Shown: positions 11,353 through 18,933 of the stretch, in pieces
Layout of the letters: each line of letters begins with the position of its first letter
Numbering within the stretch: position 1 is the stretch's first letter
Assembly (NCBI GenBank): GCA_048884785.1
Contig: JBHLQM010000014.1
Coordinates: forward strand, 35,736-56,106
DNA: 20,371 nt
Reading direction: 5' to 3'
From: Candidatus Thorarchaeota archaeon
GTDB lineage: Archaea; Asgardarchaeota; Thorarchaeia; Thorarchaeales; Thorarchaeaceae
Made by a program: the position numbers and the translations under genes
Notes under the pieces: model-generated
Database searches by the model: none
Told to the model about the DNA's origin: nothing
The model's input: the letters and a program-made list of their open reading frames with translations, nothing else

Positions 11353-11796
11353 TTACACTCCGGTACTACCGAATCCGCCTTCTCCACGATCCGAATCAAC
11401 TAGCTCGTCTACTTCTACGAAACTAACATCTGGTACAGGCCTAATCGCCAGCTGCGCGATTCTCATTCCTCGTTTGATATAGAAGCCATCTTGTCCCAGA
11501 TTTTGAAGGATGACCTTCACTTCCCCTCTGTATCCACTATCAATTGTGCCCGGTGCGTTCACAAGTGTTATTCCATGGCTGAGAGATAAACCACTTCGTG
11601 GACGCACTTGTCCTTCAAAGCCTCTCGGAATCTCCAACGCGATACCCGTTGAAACTGCATATCGAGCCTGGGACATTAGCAGATAGTCTTCTGCTGCAAA
11701 TAGGTCAAATGCAGCATCATCCTCCTTTGCCTTCTTTGGAAGGAATGCATCCCCTGAAATGCGCTTGACCTTAACAACTACCTTGTCGTCCGTCAT
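11353..11796 (-). CDS. dut: Trimeric dUTP diphosphatase
   Basis: All five motifs present: AFDL, RSGL, GTIDSGYRGE, RIAQL, RGEGGFGSTG. ATG at 11796 chosen; the ORF is open to 11817. Confidence 0.96.
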   Translation of the reverse strand: MTDDKVVVKVKRISGDAFLPKKAKEDDAAFDLFAAEDYLLMSQARYAVSTGIALEIPRGFEGQVRPRSGLSLSHGITLVNAPGTIDSGYRGEVKVILQNLGQDGFYIKRGMRIAQLAIRPVPDVSFVEVDELVDSDRGEGGFGSTGV

Positions 11797-11898
11797 TTGA
11801 CGTGGAATCCTCCTCACCCCATGATTTCATTTCCTTCAGATATAGAAGTTGTTCTAATAAATGTGAGAAAACCAATCATAGAGTTTCTAGTAGGAAAG

Positions 11899-11926
11899 TG
11901 GTGCCGCGGGTGTGATTTGAACACAC
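11899..11926 (-). repeat. tRNA 3'-end mimic, copy 1 (distal att-like site)
   Basis: Minus GTGTG-TTCAAAT-CACAC-CCGCGGC-A-CCA; trailer CTTTCCTACT differs from the other copies. Confidence 0.9.
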
Positions 11927-11957
11927 AGGGTCGTCTAGCATCAACTCACCGGTTTTC

Positions 11958-11982
11958 TGATATAGTCACTTTTACTATATCA
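11958..11982. repeat. Perfect 9-7-9 inverted repeat
   Basis: TGATATAGT-CACTTTT-ACTATATCA, between the 11991 stop codon and mimic copy 1. Confidence 0.75.
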
Positions 11983-11990
11983 AAGATAGT

Positions 11991-12695
11991 CTATTTTCTT
12001 CTAATCCATGTGACTAGTACGATTACCACGATAACTATTCCTAATGCTAAGCCAGTAGTTAAGATGGCCTGTAGACGGGGATTCATTGGCAACCTTGATA
12101 GCGTGGATCTGATGGTGCTATTGCTCCAGGACCATGAATAATCCACTAACTCAAGTAACACCCCATCAAGTTTGGAATATGTGAAGCGGGTACTTGATCC
12201 ATCGGATGTAGAGCGCGTACTAGTTGTATTGTATCCCCACTCATTAATGGTGTCAATGATTTGAAATGAATATGTATCATACTCAGAAACATTTCGTCTA
12301 TTGAAACTGGCCTCCAGTACCTTTGATAGTAAACTCCAGTTTCCAATCGGAACTGCGAGATGCAATCCGACCTGCCAATTTTCTTCATCCAGAGAACTAT
12401 CATTTGCCCAGTACACATCGAAACGTGAAAATGGAGTATAGCTGTCGTTCGTAAGTGGGTCCTCAATTGAAGGATGTTCAGGTCCAACAAGCAAGAAGTA
12501 GTTCTCGTTCTCTATTATCACCTCATCATTCTCAAAGTGCCGTCTATAGATGAAAGTGAACCCCTGCCCCTCTTCATATCCCCAATGAAGATTCTGACTA
12601 TGAGTGGCAGAAACTTCAGATGCAGATGATATTACGAAGAGGAATCCAATTACTGCAGCCCAATAGTATTTCCTAACCATCTGAAATGCCCACAC
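11991..12695 (-). CDS. Exported/surface protein with signal peptide and C-terminal membrane anchor
   Basis: Signal peptide ending VSA, many N-x-S/T sequons, C-terminal TM plus RRK. Start is GTG 12695 or ATG 12680; TATATA at 12721-12726. Confidence 0.85.
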   Translation of the reverse strand: MWAFQMVRKYYWAAVIGFLFVISSASEVSATHSQNLHWGYEEGQGFTFIYRRHFENDEVIIENENYFLLVGPEHPSIEDPLTNDSYTPFSRFDVYWANDSSLDEENWQVGLHLAVPIGNWSLLSKVLEASFNRRNVSEYDTYSFQIIDTINEWGYNTTSTRSTSDGSSTRFTYSKLDGVLLELVDYSWSWSNSTIRSTLSRLPMNPRLQAILTTGLALGIVIVVIVLVTWIRRK

Positions 12696-12885
12696 AACCA
12701 GAATTGCCTTTTCTTCTGGCTATATACCCTTCTGCTTTGCAGAATGAGAAAAGTGGTGCCGCGGGTGTGATTTGAACACACGATAACCAGTTCATCACGC
12801 GTCCATAGCCTCTGGCTCCGCAAGCAGTTTTGGCAAATACTGTTTTTGATAAATCAACTCCGTTTTTGTTCAATATGAGATTGAA
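12585..12885. repeat. ~300-bp direct repeat, copy A
   Basis: Manual alignment to 13909-14208 gives about 14 substitutions and 1 indel (~95%). Confidence 0.95.
12754..12825 (-). ncRNA. tRNA 3'-end mimic copy 2 (12754-12781), possibly within a 72-nt degenerate tRNA-like RNA
   Basis: Same 28-nt core. Upstream GCTTGCGG can pair with CCGCGGC (one bulge); no proper anticodon stem. The repeat is certain, RNA status is inferred. Confidence 0.5.
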
Positions 12886-12905
12886 TAGTACTTTGCGATG
12901 TTGCT

Positions 12906-13757
12906 TTAGCATCTACAAAATGTGTTGAGGATTCTCTTACCCTTAGGTGTCAAGACGATGCGAGCCCCCTCCAAGGCTTCTTGTTGCTCAATGACCCCTC
13001 TATCACACAACATGGTCACCATGATATTTCCAAAATCGTTTGGGAAGAGCGAGCTAAGCAGGTTGAATCGTGGACTTTCAGAGTACAACTTGGTGAGTTC
13101 ATCTACTGCAAGTGATTCAGAGTTGTATAGACGAACTAATGGAAGAAGCCTTGATCTAAACTTCCTTCTCATATTGGACCGTCCAAAGAAAGTCACTCCA
13201 TATTTCATGGCATCTCCAAATGATACTGCTCCTTCAGGAATGTCCTCACTTCCCTTTAAACTTAGAAATCTCACATGCGGGCAGCAGAAGGCTGATTCTT
13301 CTACGGTCTTAGGCATTGTTACTATAACATTTGGCACACTCTCGGATTGGAATTGATTGGGGTCAATCATGATTTGTATCGGAATACCAGTTGTCGAATC
13401 AACTGAATAGATTTCGACCTTAGCACCAAAGAGGTATGCTGCTCCCAATGAATCGATGGCGCACATAGCATATCCTCTTCCAAGACCTTCAACTGTTATT
13501 TCGATGTCTGTGGGAATCGGAGAGATTGGGTATGCTCGGACTACTTCACCTCGTTCATTGAAATGGAGTAGAGAGAAGAAAGATGAGATGATGTCGTAGT
13601 TGAATTCTTGAAACTTTTCGTTTAAAGAGTACTTAATCTCCTCAAAGGATAAGCCTAATAGAATCATCTTGAGAACTTCTATGTGCAGATCGATGAACTC
13701 TTCTATGATTCCATCTTTTAGCTTGATAGTATCCTTCATCTTGGTCAAACTCCACAT
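12906..13757 (-). CDS. MerB-like (alkylmercury lyase family) protein with C-terminal winged-helix-like extension
   Basis: AYPISPIPT, YAMCAIDSLG (compare MerB YAWCALDTL), TTGIPIQI and FCCPHVRF motifs; C-terminal LCDRGVIE...IVLTPKG. Confidence 0.78.
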   Translation of the reverse strand: MWSLTKMKDTIKLKDGIIEEFIDLHIEVLKMILLGLSFEEIKYSLNEKFQEFNYDIISSFFSLLHFNERGEVVRAYPISPIPTDIEITVEGLGRGYAMCAIDSLGAAYLFGAKVEIYSVDSTTGIPIQIMIDPNQFQSESVPNVIVTMPKTVEESAFCCPHVRFLSLKGSEDIPEGAVSFGDAMKYGVTFFGRSNMRRKFRSRLLPLVRLYNSESLAVDELTKLYSESPRFNLLSSLFPNDFGNIMVTMLCDRGVIEQQEALEGARIVLTPKGKRILNTFCRC

Positions 13758-13893
13758 ATCAGTAGCAAATTTTATGACTTTGATGAACTTATACTTTCAA
13801 CCGCCATATGTCGGGTCTATTCCCTAAGAAACTATTCTCTGAAGAATGGATAATTCTTCCCTCTTCTCAAGGGGCATCAAATGGGGTTTGAAT

Positions 13894-14019
13894 CTAGAAT
13901 ATCTCTAGATGAAGATTCTGGCTAAGAGCGGCAGAAACTTCAGATGCAGATGCTATTACGAAGAGGAGTCCAATTACTGCAGCCCAATAGTATTTCCTAA
14001 CCATCTGAAATGCCCACAC
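13894..14019 (-). pseudogene. Truncated duplicate of the 11991..12695 gene (signal peptide only)
   Basis: Encodes MVRKYYWAAVIGLLFVIASASEVSAALSQNLH-LEIF*; homology stops at 13909. Confidence 0.8.
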
Positions 14020-14208
14020 AACTAGAATTGCTTTTCTTCTGGCCATATATCCTTCTGCTTTGCAGAATGAGAAAAGTGGTGCCGCGGGTGTGATTTGAAC
14101 ACACGATAATCAGTTCATCACGGGTCCATGGCCCCTGGCTCCGCAAGCAGTTTTGGCAAATACAGTTTTTGATAAATCAACTCTGTTTTTGTTCAATATG
14201 AGATTGAA
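13909..14208. repeat. ~300-bp direct repeat, copy B
   Basis: About 95% identical to 12585-12885. Confidence 0.95.
14077..14148 (-). ncRNA. tRNA 3'-end mimic copy 3 (14077-14104), possibly within a 72-nt degenerate tRNA-like RNA
   Basis: Identical 28-nt core; 4 differences from copy 2 in the upstream 44 nt. Confidence 0.5.
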
Positions 14209-14617
14209 CAAAGATTCTTATTCAAGTTCCTGTGTTGCAATTAGCTCGAGGTAATTTCTCCTTCATCTTCATGCAGGTTGGATCAGGACAAGTTATTCTA
14301 AGTTTTACAGTGCTTGCATCAGTTTCCATTTTGGATTACTTCCTCAGAGCTAATTGAAAGACAATTGCATAATCACAATATTCGAGCAATATTAATTGAT
14401 TGTGATTGAGTAGGGGTTTCAGGATTGAAATAGAGAGCACGATTGGCAGTTTTTGCTACTTCGATGAAGATGCATTGGGAGTAAGAGAGAAAGAGAGAAT
14501 CAAGGAGATTTCAGGTGGTATCATATCGTTCAAAGTACATGAAATGAATATTCCAAGATATTACGAGATTTTGACTTCAGATAGAAGAAAAGAAATGATG
14601 TAGAGTCTGGGCGGGCT

Positions 14618-16441
14618 TTATTCAATCCATTCACTCTTCTTTCTAATTGTATAGCCTCCAATAGCAACTGTGACAGCTGCACTAATAGTGCCCACTATTA
14701 AAGCTGGAATGAGGTCTGGAGGACTAGTTGTTTCTGTTTCTTCACCTATGTTATCATAGTCGAAACCACGAAAATACGCATCATTTCTGGTTAACTCTGT
14801 AAATTCACCTTCGATATATTCTGATACATTGAATGGACCTGATGTAACCATTTCATCTTCTGGAGGATGCGGGTTCCATGTGTTCCAGCCATCAAGACCT
14901 ATTTCTTTAAACTCATGCTTAGGGATAATTGGTATGTTTGCAACAGAACTTAGATGCCAATATGATTCCGAATTAAATTCAATTATCACTTGGTAAGGTG
15001 TGAGTGCATACGCCGCAGTCATATCTACTAAAGCAAGTCCAAGAGGATTGCCTAATGTATCTCTATAATAATTCAAGCTGAAAGCTACATCTTCACCAGT
15101 AAGAGGAGTGCCATCAGTCCACGATGCATTCTGAACTATATCGAATACGATTCTTGTATAACCTGCAGGAACGTGTGGATAATCATCATGAGTCAACATT
15201 GTATAACTTTCACATAGCCAATTCATGTTATTGCCATATGGATCTACAATGATAAGCGAGTCATAGAGTTCACTTAGTATACCACCTACATAAGTGGTCA
15301 TAAAGTTAAAAGTTGATTGTGTGCTCTGGGTGCCACATCGAATAGTACCACCAAACGGTCCACCAAGCTCTTCCTTCAGTTTTACCTGATAGCAGGTCCA
15401 CCAGTACTCACCCTGCAAGTCAATAAAATTCTCAAACCGGTCTGTTCGATATGCATTAATAAAGATGTTCTCATAGCACACTATCCATGGGCATTCATAG
15501 ACTATGATCTTCTGCAATTCCATTGCAGCTTCATAGACGTCGTCGTAAGTTATGGAATTGATTAATCTGTCAGCCCAATAATCAGCGGATTCGTTCCGGA
15601 AATTTGATGGATTTAGGAGTGGAGTATCGGCGTATTTTGAGTGAAAGTCAGAGGACAACCAATCACAGTCATAATATCTACCAAAATCAATGCCACAGAA
15701 TACAATATCGAAATCACCATGATAATGAAGTCTATTCAAGAACTCGTAGAAATCAGTAATCTTAGAAACTGCATCAATCGCCATCGCAAGCAGCGCATCT
15801 CTTGTTCGGTCGCCAACCTGAGTAGCAACTTCGGATGAATGAGCACACTCAATGGTCACCTGAAAATCTGAGCCATCGGGAGCCTCTCGGAATTCATCAT
15901 AATCAACATCTAGGAAACCCGATTCATCAAGCAGTTTCTTTCCTAACTCCAAGTTAGATTCATAATACGTGTAAGGGAGCATACCTTCAATTGACCATGG
16001 GCTGACACAAGGAACGACTGAGTCCTGAGCCTGTGAAAGTCCATTGAATAAGTCATCAGAGATTGCCTCTTTGTCTATGGCAAATGCAAGTGCTCTTCGA
16101 AAGGCAGTAATGTTGTATGGATATTTATCACAATTTATCGTAAGAACTCCATATCCATTCCTTAGGGATGTAGATGTAGCGATGTCCTCAGCTTCGGATA
16201 GGGTTTCAAATTCATTTACGTCAAGCTTCCCATATGACATGTCGATTTCATTGTCAAGCAAAGCGAGAACATGGTCACTCATTACATGAAAGGCAATTTT
16301 CTCTATGTAAGGTCCTTTTGTTGAAAACGACAATTCTGTTTGAGATTGGACAAATAAAGGAGAAACATACATCAAGAATAAAAATAGAATTAGCGCAAAA
16401 CGTTCTCCGGAAAGTGGATCGATTTTACTCATGGTCAGCAT
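14618..16441 (-). CDS. Family-5 (OppA/DppA-like) ABC substrate-binding protein, circularly permuted, C-terminally anchored
   Basis: FRRALAFAIDK, KKLLDESGF, GGTIRCG, LYDSL, WTDGTPLTGEDVAFS and SGPF motifs; N-terminal hydrophobic signal and C-terminal TM plus RKK. Confidence 0.9.
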   Translation of the reverse strand: MLTMSKIDPLSGERFALILFLFLMYVSPLFVQSQTELSFSTKGPYIEKIAFHVMSDHVLALLDNEIDMSYGKLDVNEFETLSEAEDIATSTSLRNGYGVLTINCDKYPYNITAFRRALAFAIDKEAISDDLFNGLSQAQDSVVPCVSPWSIEGMLPYTYYESNLELGKKLLDESGFLDVDYDEFREAPDGSDFQVTIECAHSSEVATQVGDRTRDALLAMAIDAVSKITDFYEFLNRLHYHGDFDIVFCGIDFGRYYDCDWLSSDFHSKYADTPLLNPSNFRNESADYWADRLINSITYDDVYEAAMELQKIIVYECPWIVCYENIFINAYRTDRFENFIDLQGEYWWTCYQVKLKEELGGPFGGTIRCGTQSTQSTFNFMTTYVGGILSELYDSLIIVDPYGNNMNWLCESYTMLTHDDYPHVPAGYTRIVFDIVQNASWTDGTPLTGEDVAFSLNYYRDTLGNPLGLALVDMTAAYALTPYQVIIEFNSESYWHLSSVANIPIIPKHEFKEIGLDGWNTWNPHPPEDEMVTSGPFNVSEYIEGEFTELTRNDAYFRGFDYDNIGEETETTSPPDLIPALIVGTISAAVTVAIGGYTIRKKSEWIE

Positions 16442-16565
16442 CCTCTAATCTCAATTCATCCCGCGACTCTTGTGTTCTAGAAGCAATGTTCTTCTGGAAT
16501 ATTAAATGATATGAAGATTGAATGAATTGCTAATTATTTGAGTAAATTGGAGAAATCAACAGTGG

Positions 16566-18047
16566 CTAAATCAATAGTTCTGGAAGCATCAATTTAACCA
16601 TATTTTCGAGATACTGAAGGCCTGGAAACTTCGAAGTCTTTAGAACTTCTTTGATAAGCTTCTTTGATTGGGTAAATTGTGCCTGTTTGAAAAGAAACTT
16701 TGCTCTAAGCAGCTTGGATTGGGCATCTATACCAGGGAGGTCTTTCTTTGCAACAAGGTCCAGCAACTTCTTCATCCAAGGACCAGATGATTCTAGTTTT
16801 TCATTCGTTGTTTTATATGAGAAGGATTCAATCTCAATATCCGTAAGATGTATTAGTGTAATGTTAACAAACGCTTGAGAATAATATCTCTCAAAAATAT
16901 CAAGAGCGTTCTCAAGAGTGTAGGATGCAGAAGCAAACTCATGCCGAGATTTTTCAATCAACCCTTCAACAAAGTAAGTCAGACCTAGTCGTACTTCATC
17001 ATCACTTTTTAGCACAAGTTCCTTGGCTTTTGTGATACTTTTTTCTGCTTCATCAATTCTATCAAGATTTACCAGTGCCCATGCTTCGTGGATGAGGGTG
17101 AAAAGGATATTACCTCTATCTATTTCCTGTCGAGTACCAGTAATCAGTTCTAGAGCTTTGGCTCCATCCCCCATCATATTATACAGCTGGGCAATAAGAG
17201 TTGAGGGATACCCACTGGGGAATCGCAAACTTGAGTGTACCTGAAGGTATCTATCTTGGTAATGAACACCAAGATTAAACTCCCCTTTTGCCATTGCGAT
17301 ATGTCCCAAGTTAAGATCATTGTCTGCGACCCCCGCAATAAAACCAAATCTTTCACAGACCTCTCGGTGCACTTCGAGGATACTCAGAGCCTCGTCAATA
17401 TTTATTCTTTTCACTAGATTTGCTTTCTGAGCCAGAAGACTCGTATAATCCAATATATTGTCATGCTCTTTTGCTTGTATTATTGCTTGGTTGAACATTT
17501 TTATTGCTTCATTAACACTACGCTCTCCGCTTAGTCTATTTGCCCTGATACTATATAGATATGATAGAAAGAAGCTCAAGTCATGGTCAATCTCAATCTT
17601 CGATTCTAGAATGCCAAGCGCTCTAGAATCAGTAGAACTTTCAGGATATAGGCCTTCTACAAATCGTTTCCAACCCATATAGATATGACATGTAATCCAG
17701 TCTCCTTGAGAAGCTTCAATAGCTTCAGCAATGGCTTTCCGAAACTCTCTCCATTCAACATGTAAACCACGAATTGTTTGAACTGAAAGAAGAAGTGGTT
17801 TAGCTAGGACCGAATACTTTCTTGCTTCCTGTAATTTATCGATGAGGTTGAATTTGCTTTGATTGAATGAAAAGAAATATGCAAAATATATGGCGAGTGG
17901 AGTAAATGATTCAACGCAAGCCCTATTGCACAGAATCTCAGCAAAGTCATCCAAGTCTTTTGCCTCATCCATGATAGATTGTAGTATATTCCGTGTTTCC
18001 TCATCGACATGCGGGAAGCAAGCTGTTATCGTGCCAAGTGGCTTCAC
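16566..18047 (-). CDS. TPR-like alpha-helical repeat protein
   Basis: Repeated TPR-type helices (NLGHIAMAKGEF, IAQLYNMMGDGAKAL, LGLTYFVEG). GTG at 18047 preferred because GAGG lies upstream; the ORF is open to 18122. Confidence 0.8.
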   Translation of the reverse strand: MKPLGTITACFPHVDEETRNILQSIMDEAKDLDDFAEILCNRACVESFTPLAIYFAYFFSFNQSKFNLIDKLQEARKYSVLAKPLLLSVQTIRGLHVEWREFRKAIAEAIEASQGDWITCHIYMGWKRFVEGLYPESSTDSRALGILESKIEIDHDLSFFLSYLYSIRANRLSGERSVNEAIKMFNQAIIQAKEHDNILDYTSLLAQKANLVKRINIDEALSILEVHREVCERFGFIAGVADNDLNLGHIAMAKGEFNLGVHYQDRYLQVHSSLRFPSGYPSTLIAQLYNMMGDGAKALELITGTRQEIDRGNILFTLIHEAWALVNLDRIDEAEKSITKAKELVLKSDDEVRLGLTYFVEGLIEKSRHEFASASYTLENALDIFERYYSQAFVNITLIHLTDIEIESFSYKTTNEKLESSGPWMKKLLDLVAKKDLPGIDAQSKLLRAKFLFKQAQFTQSKKLIKEVLKTSKFPGLQYLENMVKLMLPELLI

Positions 18048-18260
18048 TCCGTCAGACCTCAAAGTAACGAGATTGATATAATACAGCTGGCCATCCACAT
18101 CAATCTTTTGGGAACAGCACACCTCTCAACAAGAAAGCACATCCAGTCAGACATGAAGGGAGAGAATCCCACAGCCTTATACAGTTCGGGTCTGTGCTCT
18201 CGGTCATATACTAACCTGTAACTTGAATCTGAGGGATATACCCTGGAAAAATGAGAAAAG

Positions 18261-18367
18261 TGGTGCCGCGGGCCGGATGTTCACCGATTCTGGAAATCAA
18301 AATCGGATTTGAACCGGCGACGACACGGTCTTCAGCCGTGCGATCTCCCTGGCTAATCTACCGCGGC
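18261..18367 (-). tRNA. tRNA-Phe(GAA) with a 30-nt intron at 59/60 (18278-18307), encoded CCA
   Basis: GCCGCGG/CCGCGGC-A-CCA acceptor and CACGG-CTGAAGA-CCGTG anticodon arm. Strict BHB: central helix TTCA/TGAA, bulges AAT and CAT. Confidence 0.95.
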
Positions 18368-18414: not shown

Positions 18415-18933
18415 CTAGCGTATCTTGTAGTTCATGTAGGATGCAACAAGAGCAGTTAGAATTGCTGCGATGTTGACTCCTAGAGGATAAACCAGAAGTG
18501 AATCAAGGAACGAGATTGTTGCAAGCCATTGGGGCAAATTCGTCGATTCTGAAATACCAAATGGTACAAAGTACAACATTAGAAAGATACAGGTTGTTAG
18601 AGCCACACCTGCGAATGCTGGCATGTCTGTAGTAAATCGAGCAAACTCAGAGATTCGAGTGATCCAGTTCGATTGAGCCCTCTGTCTCTTCCTTACTTTC
18701 CTCTTGGACATAATGTGAGCCCATCGGTACATAGCCTCAGCCATGATAACATAGGCTCCACCAAGCACTGCCATCGCTCCAAGTGCTACAATAAGCTGCA
18801 GTTCTGCACTTAGAACCTGAACATACCTTGCTGCATGCCACATCAAAGGAATCTGAACAAATCCCGCAATTCCAAGGAATATGAGGATTAGTCCTGGCTT
18901 GCTGCCGCGTTTCCACCATACTGCGAGGCTCAT
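18415..18933 (-). CDS. Hypothetical membrane protein
   Basis: 4 TM segments with a highly basic loop (KRKVRKRQR). Confidence 0.75.
   Translation of the reverse strand: MSLAVWWKRGSKPGLILIFLGIAGFVQIPLMWHAARYVQVLSAELQLIVALGAMAVLGGAYVIMAEAMYRWAHIMSKRKVRKRQRAQSNWITRISEFARFTTDMPAFAGVALTTCIFLMLYFVPFGISESTNLPQWLATISFLDSLLVYPLGVNIAAILTALVASYMNYKIR

Follow-up and report, generated by a model that had tools for sequence, protein, structure and literature searches.

A stretch of 20,371 nucleotides (hereafter the window) from the genome of a Candidatus Thorarchaeota archaeon (assembly GCA_048884785.1, contig JBHLQM010000014.1, positions 35,736 to 56,106) holds a tRNA-Phe gene that is followed, on the minus strand, by three copies of a 28-nt sequence, with small blocks of genes between them, and finally by the dUTPase gene dut. 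These 28-mers are relics of a tRNA-Phe 3′ end, and the array very likely represents the scars of serial insertions at a hot spot for the entry of DNA. Its units are non-autonomous, the enzyme that moved them being encoded neither in the array nor in the assembly. In related genomes, the equivalent place can hold a gene for a predicted endonuclease of the LAGLIDADG fold, and the explanation that we prefer, to which as a whole we give about even chances, is that recombination triggered by such an endonuclease brought these blocks in.

The repeats themselves offer the clearest record of these events. The three relics (see Table 1 for all coordinates) are exact copies of one another, with a chance expectation of 0, and no further copy appears in the 3.6-Mb, 158-contig assembly even when up to three mismatches are allowed. 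From relic 1 to the tRNA gene the spacings are 855, 1323 and 4184 nt. The trailer CTTTTCTCATT comes directly after tRNA-Phe and after relics 2 and 3, and relic 1 has the trailer CTTTCCTACT. Identity at the three relic borders covers 28 to 32 nt, of which 23 nt are common to the relics and the tRNA, and direct repeats of the att-core type, as known from tandem integrative elements and cis-mobilisable elements (CIMEs), are therefore present at every unit border. A duplication of 300 bp with 94-96% identity includes relics 2 and 3. In all these respects the array is as the preliminary description had reported it.

The nature of the 28-mer turned out to be different from what had been thought. It had been taken for a mimic of a tRNA 3′ end, serving as a tRNA-shaped site, yet no element invented it: an intron-less tRNA-Phe allele has this sequence as its ordinary 3′ end (T arm, acceptor strand, discriminator and CCA), exactly so in four relatives (G010, G011, G023 and G030) and with compensatory T-stem variants in other related genomes. 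The resident gene has a GCCGG/CCGGC T arm plus an intron, and so differs from the relics. Moreover, relics 2 and 3 extend as pseudo-tRNAs, with a decayed tRNA-Phe 5′ part lying upstream in register (21/36 and 20/36 matches, values reached by only 2-4 of the 40,670 36-mers of the window), and relic 1 shows no such extension (8/36 matches). Judged by their sequence, the relics are remnants of a tRNA-Phe end, and neither scattered ends of another tRNA nor copies of the resident T arm. As the best explanation, relics 2 and 3 represent one junction type (pseudo-tRNA, 28-mer, trailer and beginning of the secreted-protein gene), duplicated when the block with the MerB-like gene entered; what best accounts for the 300-bp duplication is one crossover, either homologous or site-specific, between a MerB-bearing molecule of ~1.3 kb and an existing junction. 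On this reading, the array may record two or three independent insertions, not necessarily three, a caveat already raised for this locus that still holds.

The T-loop of the resident tRNA-Phe is interrupted by a bulge-helix-bulge intron of 30 nt, and the gene therefore escaped ARAGORN, whose only call in the window is a tRNA-Val; the Rfam tRNA model gives a partial match of 27 bits at 18302-18360. A GAA anticodon and a cloverleaf fold whose T arm contains a canonical bulge-helix-bulge (z = -4.0) confirm that the gene is a real tRNA-Phe. In the centroid fold, next to the T stem come a 4-bp helix (TTCA/TGAA), with a 3-nt bulge at either end and on either strand, and an inner helix; a cut after the second nucleotide of each bulge is predicted to give back a normal T arm (GCCGG-TTCAAAT-CCGGC), so that the predicted fold has everything that characterizes this intron class, namely the helix, the opposite bulges and a restored canonical tRNA. 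G009, G004, G005, G012, E44_bin77 and G077 have introns of the same geometry, whose inner helix covaries. The tRNA 5′ part equals that of relatives and is the only one in the genome. Since the predicted splicing restores the T arm, the gene is very probably functional. The locus keeps in this way a before-and-after record, with intron-less relics lying beside a working tRNA-Phe that carries a T-loop intron.

It could be argued that the 28-mers are not scars but functional RNA parts, either 3′ halves of split tRNAs or tRNA-like processing or termination signals within a long transcript. Such a role would agree with the perfect conservation of the three copies amid differing flanks, with the pyrimidine-rich trailer, resembling a terminator, that comes after each of them, and with the orientation of the array genes, which is that of the tRNA. 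Against it, the genome contains no orphan 5′ half with a matching acceptor strand, as a split tRNA would need, the T hairpin has no adjacent 5′ acceptor strand with which to form a minihelix, and the Rfam tRNA model is blind to the copies even at an E value of 1. In relatives, moreover, the relics are cut off at variable points of the T arm and the cargo of other arrays is not co-oriented. We consider a functional role for the 28-mers very improbable.

Comparison with relatives reveals the region downstream of tRNA-Phe as a hot spot. Across the family, a TPR protein gene, a methyltransferase gene, a 172-aa gene, tRNA-Phe, a variable gap and dut follow each other in this order. The gap measures 0.1-0.2 kb, and is essentially empty, in three genomes of three genera (G010, G016 and G021), and it reaches 6.4 kb in the window. 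Most genomes, among them those of the same genus, have other genes in it, and the four cargo genes of the window are all absent from the gaps of relatives. The preliminary description had proposed insertion at the 3′ region of tRNA-Phe, and this is supported both by the variable interval, with its empty alleles and its different cargo between the same kind of relic, and by the distal relic, which lies by dut like the tRNA end in the three empty genomes. In this line, relic-bounded units with other cargo were found at the tRNA-Phe site of at least ten other Thorarchaeota. Those of G011 comprise an open reading frame (ORF) of 720 aa followed by genes for an MFS transporter, a URO-D protein and a corrinoid protein, with three relics; G077 has units at two loci, one with an ABC transporter operon; the others occur in E44_bin77, two metagenome scaffolds, G067, G074, G089 and G087. 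Cargo orientation is mixed in the G011 and G077 arrays, and the 5′ boundaries of the relics vary in relatives between tRNA positions 49 and 54.

The genus designated g6 is especially informative, as its ancestral tRNA-Phe neighbour is the FTR1 gene. A distance of ~20-35 nt separates FTR1 from the tRNA end where the site is empty and from the distal relic where it is occupied, so that the distal relic and its trailer mark the original end. By analogy with these relics, relic 1 of the window probably is the original tRNA end of its locus. Moreover, four g6 genomes carry between tRNA-Phe and relic a one-gene element of 0.55-0.7 kb, which encodes a small predicted membrane protein and no recombinase and is polymorphic for presence within the genus. 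Its copies are 83-94% identical, FTR1 being about 74% identical between two other g6 genomes (G069 and G011), and its gene also occurs at an ordinary non-tRNA locus in another genus with 80-86% DNA identity. This element indicates that small non-autonomous units, as had been suggested for the window, do move into the tRNA-Phe site. Within the window genome itself, at least six direct copies of a tRNA-Ala(GGC) 3′ part occur on contig C9 (C9:54-7270), one of whose units contains a paralogue of the 518-aa TPR gene of the window, and an orphan copy lies on C99 (C99:50-873). In public metagenome contigs, searches for the 23-mer plus its trailer and for a relic whose left flank is not a tRNA both gave zero hits, and no viral contig carrying the 24-mer was found.

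Two observations around the tRNA gene of relatives deserve mention. Several genomes (L053:9822-10110; G036, G078, G090 and G031) have, a short way upstream of the working gene, tandem copies of portions of the tRNA-Phe 5′ part, which implies that the locus accumulates 5′ as well as 3′ relics. On the other side, many contigs from metagenome-assembled genomes (MAGs) of relatives end within ~100 nt after tRNA-Phe, as expected if populations are heterogeneous downstream of the gene.

Could the array have grown in place, through duplication of the tRNA 3′ end by unequal crossing-over or slippage and shuffling of neighbouring genes, with no mobile system at all? Exchange of a homologous or unequal kind is attested here by the 300-bp duplication, the cargo genes come from expanded families of the host, and tandem partial tRNA-Phe copies are known in G012, G036, G078 and G090. 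Still, the architecture recurs independently in at least ten genomes with unrelated cargo and at other tRNAs, the insertions are precise and have empty alleles in relatives, and the mini-element of g6 is more alike between genomes than the flanking core genes, for which we find a purely local origin improbable. An assembly artefact, fusing strain variants or unrelated contigs through a short tRNA end that they share, would be conceivable for a MAG with 5.4% contamination, particularly as many contigs of relatives break exactly at tRNA-Phe. Nevertheless, the repeat of 28-39 nt is shorter than the final k-mers of common assemblers, and Logan unitigs from two runs (SRR30758812 and SRR30758816) join the signal-peptide stub, the MerB-like gene and the next repeat copy at 99.9-100% identity, which together argue against misassembly. 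With equivalent arrays also lying inside long contigs and one 612-kb scaffold, such an artefact seems highly unlikely.

The question of which enzyme moved the units leads first to the tyrosine integrases. In a classical accretion, elements whose attP contains the 3′ end of tRNA-Phe, from the T arm through CCA and about 10 nt beyond, would have integrated in tandem; in variants of this scheme, their integrase genes would have been deleted later, or the units would be mobilised in cis or in trans, like CIMEs, by an integrase encoded elsewhere. Such integration has as its textbook signature direct repeats of a tRNA 3′ end that run past CCA and whose identity begins in or near the T arm (PMC8371274, PMC3293823). 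The duplicated 300-bp junction resembles an attP-type junction between two related elements, and the pseudo-tRNA 5′ parts of relics 2 and 3 fit a tRNA-like attP arm borne by the element. Tyrosine integrases of 330-430 aa do occur in four of six genomes of the same genus, and one in G010 adjoins a tRNA-Ser gene.

The enzyme, however, is missing. Searches with Pfam, PHROGs and NCBIfam detected no recombinase domain in the window array, and a six-frame search of the whole assembly, 91% complete with the contamination given above, found no match to PF00589 or PF16795, although an integrase element might lie in unbinned sequence. The trans-acting integrase that had been postulated thus has no candidate here. 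No integrase or integrase fragment was found in any of the relic-bounded units, at least ten, that we examined in relatives, and split-integrase remnants across the relics were also sought in vain, the sense and antisense ORFs sharing only the translated 28-mer. Any PF00589 match was obtained for 11 of 22 family genomes, and a tRNA gene lies near only one of the 16 integrase loci fetched from relatives. Moreover, the tRNA-relic interval of E44_bin77 contains nothing but a LAGLIDADG gene, and both the variable 5′ boundaries of the relics and the lack of viral contigs with the 24-mer sit badly with integrase accretion. The gene directly beside the reconstituted tRNA-Phe encodes a TPR solenoid protein, and not an intact integrase of the pNOB8 type. 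Altogether, we regard accretion by integrases, in its classical form or its variants, as a serious though lesser possibility.

Several more specific possibilities were considered and rejected. A split integrase of the SSV type finds no PF16795 match, and the relic-spanning ORFs have just the 28-mer translation in common. The 518-aa TPR gene does not hide a recombinase, as its structure matches in the ESM Atlas are all TPR solenoids and 10 of its 12 paralogues lie far from any tRNA end. Homologues of the MerB-like gene elsewhere are not cassettes either, there being no tRNA ends near them. As a separate observation, no Phage_integrase-domain protein, not even of the Xer type, was detected in the window assembly or in half of the family genomes, and most other families sampled in the phylum give integrase matches, several with E values near 1e-40.

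A different type of enzyme is found inside some of these units. In E44_bin77, the sole gene between an intron-bearing tRNA-Phe and a relic is an ORF of 646 aa that matches no known family. Its AlphaFold model, built on 25 homologues, has a predicted local distance difference test score of 79, and its top PDB matches are all LAGLIDADG homing endonucleases (PI-PfuI, I-Tsp061I, I-DmoI and PI-SceI); the catalytic acidic residue is conserved in both LAGLIDADG motifs. On the basis of this model, we assign the E44_bin77 protein and its homologues to a predicted family of LAGLIDADG-fold endonucleases, which has no Pfam match. In our protein search the family is confined to Thorarchaeota, with members in 52 of 86 family genomes and as many as nine copies per genome; no member was found in viral contigs.

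The linkage of this endonuclease to tRNA genes is tight, its genes being usually placed against a tRNA 3′ end. At least eight relatives carry a LAGLIDADG gene at the tRNA-Phe locus, and genes of the subfamily closest to the E44_bin77 protein always lie antisense and end, with their stop codon, 4-11 nt from the tRNA-Phe CCA. A T-arm intron is present in each of the seven tRNA-Phe genes abutted by the endonuclease (some of them also have a second intron in the variable region), compared with 8 of the 28 genes without it, an association with a Fisher p of 0.002 on six independent loci, uncorrected for phylogeny. Other paralogues map within ~1 kb of different tRNA genes at 17 of 40 loci, against an expectation of about 3%, and the order tRNA, endonuclease gene and relic recurs at tRNA-Thr and one other tRNA. 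The window tRNA-Phe belongs to the same allele class as the endonuclease-linked allele of G077:C303, a locus where cargo lies between the endonuclease gene and the relic.

Two candidate members were discarded. The 720-aa ORF of G011, at an hhalign probability of 0.4%, is not a distant endonuclease. The second is an ORF of 65 codons in the window (14406-14603, plus strand), antisense to the array, with an IPRYYEI motif resembling residues 45-81 of the tRNA-Phe-linked subfamily; it lies ~450 nt from the relic, about as far as the endonucleases do; the match is statistically weak (E 0.014 in a database of 40 sequences, after ~45 queries), profile and DNA-level comparisons lend it no support, and we take it as a hint of an endonuclease remnant, not as evidence.

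Based on these data, we propose that ordinary Thorarchaeota gene blocks would enter the T arm or 3′ end of the single tRNA-Phe gene one after another, each insertion supplying or regenerating a working 3′ part of the tRNA and displacing downstream the intron-less end (T arm, acceptor strand and CCA), which would remain as a 28-nt relic. In the mechanism that we favour, an endonuclease would cut the T arm of an intron-less tRNA gene and a donor locus would repair the break, with the tRNA 5′ part as the left homology arm and the relic with its downstream flank as the right one. The sequence copied between the arms would comprise a replacement 3′ half with an intron, the endonuclease gene if present, and the cargo, and the intron would protect the carrier allele from cutting. 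In the window genome, the endonuclease gene would have been lost later, or the enzyme would have acted from the donor, and a circle or fragment of ~1.3 kb with the MerB-like gene would have recombined into an existing junction to give relics 2 and 3. We favour an endonuclease because its gene is the only candidate found inside such units, because its linkage to tRNA ends is tight and specific, because it co-occurs with introns just where relics begin (tRNA positions 49-54), because cargo can lie between it and a relic, as in G077:C303, and because integrases are scarce.

Several facts weigh against this explanation. Classical homing replaces sequence and leaves no direct repeats. The three relics are identical and intron-less, which implies that earlier insertions regenerated an intron-less, and presumably cleavable, tRNA end. 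The repeat shared by tRNA-Phe and relics 2 and 3 extends 11 nt beyond CCA, and that of the g6 element runs from the T-loop to ~10 nt past CCA, in both cases more like the core site of an integrase than a break-repair junction, and relics 2 and 3 carry pseudo-tRNA arms resembling attP. In G067, a GTGTG-type tRNA accompanies a CCGGC-type relic, the reverse of the situation in the window, which makes it ambiguous which T arm arrived and which was resident. Moreover, the endonuclease family is present in all six other genomes of the genus and was not detected in the window genome (best E value 0.63 with hmmsearch --max, where a positive control worked). The missing family, the repeats beyond CCA, the attP-like arms and the absence of repeats in homing would all fit a tyrosine integrase that was lost or lies outside the sampled sequence.

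A broader version of endonuclease-triggered capture, which we put forward only tentatively and hold to be rather unlikely, would make it a general system of Thorarchaeota for gene capture without integrases, where LAGLIDADG endonucleases, with one paralogue lineage per tRNA species, would cut intron-less tRNA genes and repair would install an intron-bearing 3′ half. If so, the intron would destroy the cut site while the endonuclease gene and hitch-hiking cargo enter, the displaced tRNA end serving as the right homology arm. This would provide a route by which non-canonical tRNA introns of Asgard archaea arrive and persist, as a form of immunity, and would at the same time explain how ordinary genes come to form integron-like arrays at tRNA loci.

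The locus bears in any case on how Asgard tRNA genes gain introns. A 2026 preprint (10.64898/2026.10.13.758758) concluded that these introns were gained repeatedly, leaving their route of arrival open and finding no link with mobile elements. In relatives of the window genome, the same allele class is coupled to an unannotated LAGLIDADG gene, which screens for mobile elements based on hallmark genes would miss. The closest published case is the tRNA-Thr of Caldiarchaeum subterraneum, where an insert left a tRNA fragment as a direct repeat and delivered an extra intron (Sugahara et al. 2012, PMC3293823), which in the authors' proposal blocks further invasion. Both loci keep an old tRNA fragment as a direct repeat beside a gene reconstituted with an extra intron that the incoming DNA brought or, in the window, would have brought. 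They differ in that Caldiarchaeum has a single 1.8-kb insert with a putative recombinase and a 5′ fragment, whereas the window has three 3′ relics, gene cargo and no recombinase, and relatives of the window genome carry a LAGLIDADG gene at the equivalent place. The idea that introns arrive with mobile DNA and then protect against it becomes testable here, with a named enzyme, target and set of alleles. Moreover, the locus shows that Asgard chromosomes take up sizeable blocks of ordinary metabolic and transport genes at tRNA loci in the absence of a recognisable integrase, which matters for detecting and counting gene flow in these genomes.

Other known systems share only part of these features. 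CIMEs and tandem elements at bacterial tRNA genes (PMC5704250; PMC7563491) also consist of units split by att repeats, some of them without integrase and dependent on a neighbour, but they lie beside or derive from an identifiable integrase element, of which neither the array nor the genome shows a trace; the window differs further in its archaeal host, in units as small as one gene and in a functional tRNA end that is distinguished from the relics by an intron. Archaeal gene capture of the SSV (suicidal) and pNOB8 types (PMC7253208, PMC8371274) likewise involves integration at tRNA 3′ ends, direct repeats and elements trapped in the chromosome; Int(N) and Int(C) gene halves mark the borders of the former and an intact integrase beside the tRNA marks the latter, and the window has neither. 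The free-standing homing endonucleases of T4-like phages, with their trans and collaborative homing (PMC2790892, PMC3984707), lie beside an intron-interrupted target as in the window's relatives, and there too the intron can protect its carrier and flanking DNA is co-converted. In those phages, though, the introns are of group I and interrupt protein genes, in contrast to bulge-helix-bulge introns of cellular tRNA genes in Thorarchaeota, where the displaced tRNA end remains, cargo rides along and the window genome lacks the predicted enzyme. In HeimM2 of Heimdallarchaeum (PMC8813620), a homologue of homing endonucleases sits between 16S rRNA and tRNA-Arg genes. Neither an endonuclease family next to cellular tRNA genes nor gene arrays of Asgard genomes punctuated by relics came up in the literature that we searched.

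The comparison with integrons, made in the preliminary description, holds in part. As in integrons, small and mostly single-gene units pile up at one anchor with a repeated recombination site between them, and the serial entry of small non-autonomous units at one tRNA is retained. Integrons, however, have an IntI-type integrase by the anchor and a family of attC hairpins, whereas the window has no integrase and its repeat is a tRNA end; integron cassettes are mostly promoterless, co-oriented single ORFs, each with an attC-type site at its end, and Thorarchaeota cargo, although co-oriented in the window, is neither consistently co-oriented nor consistently promoterless in other arrays.

Table 1. 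Features of the tRNA-Phe array in the window and related loci in other genomes
Feature	Position	Strand	Basis
dut (dUTPase), conserved right-hand flank of the hot spot	11353..11817	-	Pfam; synteny in at least 15 relatives
Relic 1, exact 28-mer with distinct trailer, 81 nt before dut	11899..11926	-	Sequence
Signal-peptide protein, 234 aa, cargo of the distal unit; no family match	11991..12695	-	
Copy A of the 300-bp junction, extending into the start of the 234-aa secreted protein gene	12585..12885	-	
Relic 2, exact 28-mer; decayed pseudo-tRNA 5′ part upstream at 12782-12830	12754..12781	-	
MerB-like organometal lyase homologue, cargo of the middle unit	12906..13757	-	Pfam PF03243, 1.7e-12
Signal-peptide stub, 41 codons, within or at copy B	about 13894-14019	-	
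Copy B of the 300-bp junction: pseudo-tRNA, relic, trailer, promoter-like region, signal-peptide stub	13909..14208	-	
Relic 3, exact 28-nt intron-less tRNA-Phe 3′ end	14077..14104	-	
Decayed tRNA-Phe 5′-like part, in register with relic 3	14105..14153	-	Alignment, 20/36 matches
Proximal unit, 4.2 kb: TPR and SBP_bac_5 genes	14618..18122	-	
SBP_bac_5 solute-binding protein	14618-16441	-	Pfam, NCBIfam
TPR solenoid protein, 518 aa	16566-18122	-	Pfam, NCBIfam; ESM Atlas structure matches are TPR proteins
tRNA-Phe(GAA), 107 nt, CCA encoded	18261..18367	-	Direct reading, Rfam partial match, fold
Bulge-helix-bulge intron, 30 nt, tRNA position 59/60 (T-loop)	18278..18307	-	Centroid fold
Conserved 172-aa gene, left-hand flank of the hot spot; 64-87% identical in relatives	18415..18933	-	
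One-gene element of genus g6	L147:1441-2143; also L142, L157, L165		
E44_bin77 endonuclease locus	L057:1602-3542; family also L048, L094, L097/L098, L101, L149, L150		

The cargo of the window lies in the order first described, from the TPR and SBP_bac_5 genes through the MerB-like and secreted protein genes to dut. Each unit has one or two genes with their own upstream regions, all in the orientation of tRNA-Phe. The TPR and SBP_bac_5 genes belong to expanded host families, with 12 and 13 paralogues in the genome, and the GC content of the proximal unit is 0.36-0.42, against about 0.44 in the flanks. The match of the SBP_bac_5 protein to its profile is permuted, as the preliminary description had noted: the profile's C-terminal half is matched first and a piece of its N-terminal part later. 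In view of the thirteen paralogues of similar length in the genome, this looks like a trait of the family. Exact-protein look-ups for the solute-binding protein, dut and the secreted protein returned no record. Inside the TPR gene, a weak match to the sR30 C/D-box sRNA (19 bits, E 0.59; 16977-17007, minus strand) is probably due to chance. The MerB-like protein also matches an NCBIfam SaoL-like model below the cut-off, and its gene has a patchy distribution (6 of 86 family genomes). Finally, the 234-aa secreted protein of the distal unit has one paralogue in the genome, 52% identical, on contig C48.

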